Assembly (NCBI RefSeq): GCF_003790525.1
Contig: NZ_CP033635.1
Origin: Escherichia coli
GTDB taxonomy: Bacteria > Pseudomonadota > Gammaproteobacteria > Enterobacterales > Enterobacteriaceae
DNA length: 64,000 bases
Reading direction: 5' to 3' (one strand)
The position numbers and the translations under genes were made by a program. Shown piece by piece: positions 56,473 to 56,786 of the stretch. Numbering within the stretch: the stretch's first letter is position 1; every line of letters begins with the position of its first letter. The notes under the pieces were generated by a model. That model searched no databases, was not told the origin of the DNA, and worked only from the letters and a program-made list of their open reading frames with translations.

Positions 56473-56484
56473 AAGTATGTACAC

Positions 56485-56513
56485 GGGCAGCACGACGCTG
56501 CCCGATTGCTTTC
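56485..56513 (+). terminator. Candidate dapD terminator hairpin
   Basis: GGGCAGC-acgac-GCTGCCC followed by GATTGCTTTCTGG (weak T-tract). Confidence 0.5.
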
Positions 56514-56786
56514 TGGTTCAGAATAATTCGTCCTGCTCATTCTTCCTCCCCCCTTTTTTAAATACTTTTTCATCTTGTTTCGGACTGTCATGTAATTCGC
56601 AAAACGAAGATAAATGTGCTAATCCATCCCATGGAATATCGCCACAATAAAGCAGGTAATTTTTTGATTTTTACGCCATGATAGAAGTCTGGAAGAAAAA
56701 GGCTTTCTGCGATCACAGTCGAGCCGGGCGGGCCAGGCCAAATGCTAAAATAAGCACAATTTACTGACTCATTTTGAGGTAACGCT

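Follow-up and report, generated by a model that had tools for sequence, protein, structure and literature searches.

The 314-bp spacer between dapD and yaeH in the analysed stretch of Escherichia coli DNA (64,000 nucleotides, hereafter the window) is very probably the yaeI-null haplotype, a common one, of an insertion/deletion polymorphism that is old and segregates naturally in the genus Escherichia. The spacer runs from 56473 to 56786, between the dapD stop codon (ending at 56472) and the yaeH start codon (beginning at 56787), and the ORF listing shows no substantial reading frame within it. The genes map and glnD lie upstream of the pair, while cdaR, degP and dgt follow downstream. An initial annotation of the window had counted the same 314 non-coding base pairs and placed a polypyrimidine tract around 56535–56570, where a C/T-rich run is indeed present at 56540–56559. 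It had also given the K-12 gene order as yaeH, yaeI, dapD, with a metallophosphoesterase of roughly 270 aa at this site. The K-12 record bears out this order, with b0163, b0164 and b0166 adjacent on one strand. K-12 YaeI is a metallophosphoesterase of 270 aa that matches PF00149 at 5.4e-13 and gives a weak match to a TAT signal.

No YaeI homologue was found in the window when K-12 YaeI was searched against all six frames by tblastn. The best match (E = 0.23) covered only 39 aa at an unrelated position (14795–14911), in agreement with the earlier claim that the window contains no yaeI-like ORF, and blastn with the yaeI gene returned chance words only. Positions 56300–56950 are 100% identical to E. 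coli SMS-3-5 (NC_010498.1), and in the RefSeq annotation of that genome yaeH directly adjoins dapD. The same adjacency in an identical sequence means that the absence of yaeI is not an assembly or reading artefact. The strain is without YaeI, and nothing takes its place. The features of the locus are collected in Table 1.

Table 1. Features of the dapD–yaeH locus in window coordinates, with the evidence on which each is based.
Feature	Coordinates	Strand	Basis and remarks
dapD CDS, 274 aa	55648..56472	+	ORF list; annotated dapD in NC_010498.1; left anchor of the variable spacer
23-codon ORF, GGAGG 4 nt before ATG	56469..56540	-	Translation; overlaps the dapD terminator; listed as a candidate only
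Predicted dapD intrinsic-terminator hairpin, CGGGCAGC-ACGAC-GCTGCCCG	56484..56504	+	Pattern scan; comparison with K-12, E. albertii and other alleles
Allele-specific segment, ~110 nt	56508..56616	.	K-12 homology ends at 56507; single-copy; only in yaeI-less Escherichia alleles
Polypyrimidine tract TTCTTCCTCCCCCCTTTTTT, length differs between strains	56540..56559	+	Alignment of 9 yaeI-less alleles
Fossil of the geneX 3' end, C*SIPWNIATIKQVIF*	56617..56667	+	blastn to GF43 geneX
Part common with yaeI-bearing alleles: last ~31 nt of the geneX fossil and 119-nt yaeH upstream region (56668-56786)	56637..56786	+	99.1% identity to K-12
yaeH CDS, 128 aa, DUF3461	56787..57173	+	ORF list; Pfam PF11944, E = 2.4e-55; right anchor

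Comparing the window with the dapD–yaeI–yaeH arrangement of K-12 MG1655 (b0166, b0164, b0163) reveals the same flanking genes in the same orientation, the same dapD terminator hairpin and the same 150 nt before yaeH (99%). The hairpin is a predicted Rho-independent terminator, G+C-rich and followed by a T-run. In the window allele the tail reads ATTGCTTTCT and its T-run is broken, and in the yaeI-bearing alleles it reads GATTTTTTT; despite the interruption, the pattern scan still scored the site as terminator-like. By blastn, K-12 homology stops at 56507, right after the terminator stem (...GCTGCCCGATT), and restarts at 56637 (TATCGCCACAATAAAGCAGG...), with 99.1% identity from there. The breakpoints are those of blastn, as aligning the two intervals globally with MAFFT put the left flank in the wrong place. 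Between the breakpoints K-12 has 842 nt where the window has 129 unrelated nt (56508–56636, 39% G+C). A clean deletion of the K-12 arrangement was therefore rejected, and these 129 nt without a K-12 counterpart make the difference a replacement-type indel in which no microhomology junction is readable. The endpoints that the initial annotation proposed to define by alignment with K-12 lie between 56507 and 56508 and between 56636 and 56637; flanking microhomology, which it would also have looked for, could not be defined.

The two arrangements divide the species between them. In a megablast survey of 5,426 complete E. coli genomes with the spacer and its flanks, the locus was found in 5,424 and matched contiguously in 3,343. 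The K-12-specific query of 842 nt (yaeI plus 18 nt before and 11 nt after the gene) is present in 2,084 genomes and the window-specific 129 nt in 3,338, each in one place per genome. Together these counts account for 5,422 of the 5,424 flank-bearing genomes, and no genome among the 5,426 was seen to carry both yaeI and the yaeI-less spacer. The locus is dimorphic, and the yaeI-less form is the majority, at about 61.5%. Contigs that encode the exact YaeH protein of the window likewise showed only a yaeI-bearing or a yaeI-null arrangement. The null allele occurs in IAI1, where the spacer is also 314 bp, in O157:H7, in an O18:H1 strain, in SMS-3-5 and in Escherichia sp. E1V33, whose version is 93% identical over the 129 nt. 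We take the four E. coli strains to belong to phylogroups B1, E, B2 and F, respectively, and K-12 to phylogroup A. With its spacer length and the single-copy segment 56508–56636, the window belongs to this yaeI-null haplotype (SMS-3-5/IAI1/O157:H7 type), in which the spacer measures about 310–320 bp. Natural presence/absence polymorphism, one of the two readings offered at the outset, is borne out by these numbers. The evidence supports refining that reading in two respects: the window is not a clean deletion relative to K-12, and the yaeI-less allele is the commoner one.

As such, the polymorphism is ordinary and essentially known. The genome is public and annotated, and a pan-genome analysis has already reported yaeI among the orthologous groups enriched in phylogroup A (Leimbach et al. 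2017, PMC5422975). Our data resemble the picture of lineage-associated accessory genes given there, in that yaeI is patchy, being present in K-12 and missing from IAI1, O157:H7, the O18:H1 strain and SMS-3-5. That paper gives the phylogroup-A enrichment only; what is new here is the allele structure, the geneX fossil described below and the polarity provided by outgroup states.

Where yaeI is present, it is unusually divergent within E. coli: identity to the query is at least 99% in 1,381 genomes, 95–99% in 367, 90–95% in 261 and 80–90% in 75. One 90%-identity cluster of YaeI proteins has members whose names point to E. coli, E. fergusonii and E. albertii, which hints at exchange between species. 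In strain 1506 (NZ_CP059288.1) the yaeI match falls into two pieces over 1,619 bp with an IS1-family transposase annotated beneath; we read this as yaeI interrupted by IS1, one more route of gene loss.

The origin of part of the spacer becomes apparent from a longer version of the locus. In Escherichia sp. MOD1-EC7003 the interval is 1.7 kb and contains, after yaeI, an uncharacterised ORF of 236 aa, here called geneX (3172–3882 of locus L014). The same yaeI–geneX cassette is found in E. coli GF43, the only one of the 5,426 complete E. coli genomes to carry it, in some E. albertii (three loci), in Pseudocitrobacter cyperus and in an enterobacterial contig (L102). Enterobacter sp. kpr-6 has geneX without yaeI at the dapD–yaeH site. 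All 14 geneX homologues terminate in EPVPWGIA[KR]IKQVIF, and the DNA of this terminus with its stop codon is the exact point where all Escherichia alleles realign upstream of yaeH. In the window, 51 nt (56617–56667) match nucleotides 661–711 of GF43 geneX with 88.2% identity (blastn, E = 7e-15). Their translation, C*SIPWNIATIKQVIF*, contains an internal stop, compared with CEPVPWGIATIKQVIF* in intact geneX. This stretch is a pseudogene remnant of geneX, a family of 230–245 aa, lying at the same distance from yaeH as the intact gene. The 119 nt that follow (56668–56786) show almost no variation across Escherichia species, and Pseudocitrobacter and Enterobacter sp. kpr-6 also have conserved blocks of this upstream region in their cassette loci. 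Relative to the full cassette allele of GF43, MOD1-EC7003, some E. albertii and P. cyperus, the window is homologous in its type of terminator, in the final 51 nt of geneX and in the region upstream of yaeH, but lacks yaeI and geneX nucleotides 1–660 and has ~110 nt of unexplained sequence instead. The geneX family itself comprises 675 cluster representatives and is confidently foldable and without annotation; neither a Pfam model nor a relative of solved structure was detectable. It could deserve a separate look.

The length of the geneX remnant separates the two common alleles. Alleles that bear yaeI and lack geneX keep just 23–31 nt of the geneX terminus (about 29 nt in K-12), whereas the window keeps 49–51 nt. 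Over the 20 nt past the K-12-type breakpoint, the window agrees with geneX in register at 14 positions (binomial p about 1e-4). With more of geneX left than in the K-12 type, the null allele cannot have descended from an allele of that type, and the differing remnants make the two common alleles separate deletion derivatives of the cassette. The other initial reading, a deletion scar, is upheld in this sense: the spacer retains the dapD terminator of the Escherichia type together with 51 fossil nucleotides of geneX, the second gene of the full cassette. A recent, simple loss of yaeI from a K-12-like ancestor, confined to this strain or its lineage, would agree with the collinearity of both flanks with K-12 (97–99% identity). 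We nevertheless consider it extremely unlikely, since the 129 junction nucleotides have no K-12 counterpart, the preserved geneX 3' end is about 20 nt longer in the window than in any yaeI-only allele, and the null allele recurs in 3,338 genomes and in another Escherichia species.

To polarise these states, we compared dapD–yaeH loci from a scan for YaeH relatives with one genome per species, which returned 80 loci and left out E. fergusonii, E. marmotae and E. ruysiae. Across about 70 species from other genera, including Citrobacter, Klebsiella, Enterobacter, Raoultella, Kluyvera, Cedecea, Kosakonia and Atlantibacter, only about 110 bp separate dapD from yaeH and yaeI is missing. These unoccupied spacers have another terminator hairpin and share a conserved motif, TTTTCGTTAATTATTCA, which is absent from Escherichia. 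They resemble the window in that yaeH comes straight after dapD with no yaeI between them, and differ from it in the terminator hairpin and in the sequence upstream of yaeH, in being about 200 bp shorter and in having no geneX fossil. E. albertii, E. whittamii, Escherichia sp. MOD1-EC7003 and a divergent E. coli do have yaeI at the same site, with 83–89% amino acid identity to K-12. Protein clusters additionally contain YaeI sequences named from E. fergusonii, Shigella, Pseudocitrobacter and Superficieibacter. The nearest relatives with a named source outside the Enterobacteriaceae come from Verrucomicrobiota MAGs (55–59% identity). Insertions at this site recur in other genera: Enterobacter wuhouensis carries a 762-aa ORF on the minus strand (L055:1461–3749), and Enterobacter sp. 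BIGb0383 carries a lipoprotein-like ORF of 57 aa (L063:3619–3792).

The simplest reading of these outgroup states is that the ~110-bp spacer is primitive and that the cassette entered an ancestor of Escherichia and, sporadically, other lineages. If the short spacer is primitive and the cassette was gained, the adjacency of dapD and yaeH in the window is secondary. The opposite polarity, in which the window would preserve an ancestral, never-occupied state and yaeI would have been gained later only in K-12-like lineages, draws on the absence of yaeI from this site in most Enterobacteriaceae and on the patchy distribution of YaeI with its verrucomicrobial relatives, which fits a horizontal gain at some point. 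It is very unlikely, given that the spacer measures 314 bp and not ~110 bp and lacks the motif TTTTCGTTAATTATTCA, that the window has the geneX fossil along with a terminator and a yaeH upstream region of the cassette type, and that yaeI is found in E. albertii, E. fergusonii and E. whittamii.

We thus propose the following history as the best explanation of the observed allele frequencies, breakpoints, fossil and outgroup states, from which we infer the order of events and the spread by recombination. In the ancestral Enterobacteriaceae state the spacer would have measured about 110 bp. An ancestor of Escherichia would then have gained a cassette consisting of a new dapD terminator, yaeI (encoding a metallophosphoesterase with a TAT signal), geneX and a new yaeH upstream region of ~120 bp. 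One deletion, leading to the K-12 type, would have removed geneX and kept yaeI with the last 23–31 nt of geneX. Another, leading to the SMS-3-5 type, would have removed yaeI and geneX except for the final ~51 nt of the latter, and the ~110 nt left in their place, with an unstable C/T tract, would be decayed or filler sequence. Homologous recombination through the conserved flanks would since have carried both alleles from lineage to lineage. The deletion route to the null allele is incomplete, since the ~110 nt at 56508–56616 cannot be derived from the cassette with statistical support. The null allele might instead have been derived from a dapD–geneX–yaeH arrangement without yaeI, such as that of Enterobacter sp. 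kpr-6.

Comparison of the ~110-nt segment with five cassette alleles by local alignment on both strands gave chance-level scores, and a collinear alignment allowing for long deletions gave z of about 0. The best local alignments always involve the C/T-rich nucleotides ~120–205 of yaeI, which encode ...PPFKILFLADLHYSR. Their significance is marginal. Against contig L102, the score was reached by 11 of 1,000 dinucleotide shuffles and by 3–12 of 400 composition-preserving block shuffles, the only suggestive result and one that was not robust to the number of targets tried (about eleven) or to the C/T richness shared by both sequences. Against the P. cyperus allele 24–28 of 400 shuffles reached the score, and against the Escherichia alleles 37–126 of 400. 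The segment may be a very decayed relic of yaeI. In an alignment of nine null alleles almost all length variation falls in the C/T tract, of which strain BS-04 has a rearranged version; judged from these sequences, the tract behaves as an unstable simple sequence.

We also considered whether a mobile element (IS, MITE or REP) could have taken out yaeI and left the segment as its remnant or excision scar. An 8-nt direct repeat, GCTTTCTG, has one copy right at the left breakpoint (56508) and the other at 56702, as such an event might leave. By our own estimate, one repeated 8-mer in 361 nt is about what chance would produce. The segment is single-copy, with no second locus in the complete E. coli genomes, in plasmids or in phages: plasmid matches were confined to E. 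coli records of 0.4–4.9 Mb, which we take to be chromosomal, and phage matches to 27 nt of low complexity. Searches of the segment against its local flanks on both strands found chance-level similarity only, repeats were likewise at chance level, and no genome showed the segment with terminal inverted repeats. Taken together, an origin of the segment from a mobile element is barely credible.

A different possibility is that the ~110 nt are a selected functional replacement, serving as an extended yaeH promoter or leader, as an unannotated small RNA or as the 23-codon ORF on the minus strand. Between SMS-3-5 and Escherichia sp. E1V33, 56555–56786 differs at only 6 of 232 sites and 56555–56618 at 1 of 64, despite 24–31% divergence at 4-fold synonymous sites in glnD, dapD and yaeH, and the small ORF has a GGAGG 4 nt upstream of its ATG. 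The block of low divergence, however, runs on into yaeH, whose first 101 nt show no difference at all, as expected of an imported recombination tract, and strain H5 joins an E1V33-like dapD terminator region to an E. coli-like remainder. We therefore did not accept the conservation of 56555–56786 as a sign of selection; recombination is the likelier cause of the low divergence than functional constraint.

Searches for functional elements within the spacer were negative throughout. Rfam 15 gave no gathering-score match in 56300–56900 (the best, sroE, reached 22.7 bits against a threshold of 51 and covered only the terminator hairpin). No sigma-70-like promoter in the spacer passed the scan, the sole terminator-like site was the dapD hairpin, and the predicted RNA fold was no more stable than shuffled sequences (z = –0.45). 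The 23-codon ORF coincides with no annotated feature in any genome sampled. Its SD-like tract is the unstable C/T run and so varies in length, and across nine alleles we counted by eye about 4 synonymous and about 6 non-synonymous differences. A functional replacement is thus very unlikely. The same low probability applies to a broader form of the idea, in which an old three-state polymorphism (full cassette, yaeI-only and null) runs across Escherichia and the ~110 nt of the null state are a selected element that alters dapD read-through and yaeH expression or encodes the 23-codon peptide. If true, such an element would account for how nearly identical the segment is in E. coli and Escherichia sp. 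E1V33. Apart from serving as dapD terminator and as promoter and leader of yaeH, the spacer is probably idle. Elsewhere in the window, gathering-score Rfam matches comprise the HtrA 5'-UTR thermometer upstream of degP (59958–60003, minus strand), the t44 RNA beside map and rpsB (51749–51835, minus strand) and an rRNA operon with tRNAs (13043–18135, minus strand).

K-12 and IAI1 diverge by 1–4% over a block of ~7 kb round the site, compared with ~0–0.4% in the upstream flank on the rpsB side. A haplotype-specific peak of divergence that splits yaeI-bearing from null alleles was not seen, the flanks of SMS-3-5 being about equally far from K-12 and from IAI1. From glnD to degP (window 52500–58900) divergence is raised: SMS-3-5 differs from both K-12 and IAI1 by 2–4.6%, and these two differ from each other by 1–4.4%. 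The surroundings of the indel thus look like a mosaic, rich in recombination. The spacer between the convergent genes yaeH and cdaR (window 57174–57226) is also a replaced allele: SMS-3-5 has 53 nt with the hairpin GGGCCGGGTAAAGTCTCACCCGGC, and K-12, IAI1 and Escherichia sp. E1V33 have 88 nt with another hairpin (CATTCCCCTC...GAGGGGAATG). Each spacing is met again in public E. coli contigs. Further upstream, the window is without about 145 nt (at 49084–49088) and about 133 nt (at 50979–50990) of K-12 sequence, probably small intergenic indels.

The absence of yaeI from this window matters little. For annotators and comparative genomicists, it identifies yaeI as an accessory gene and K-12 as the minority state at this locus. 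A mismatch between another strain and a gene order expected from K-12 should not be taken for a deletion. The modest added value lies in the reconstruction, according to which both common alleles would be independent decay products of one acquired two-gene cassette, and every E. coli would bear, upstream of yaeH, the fossil of its second gene, geneX.
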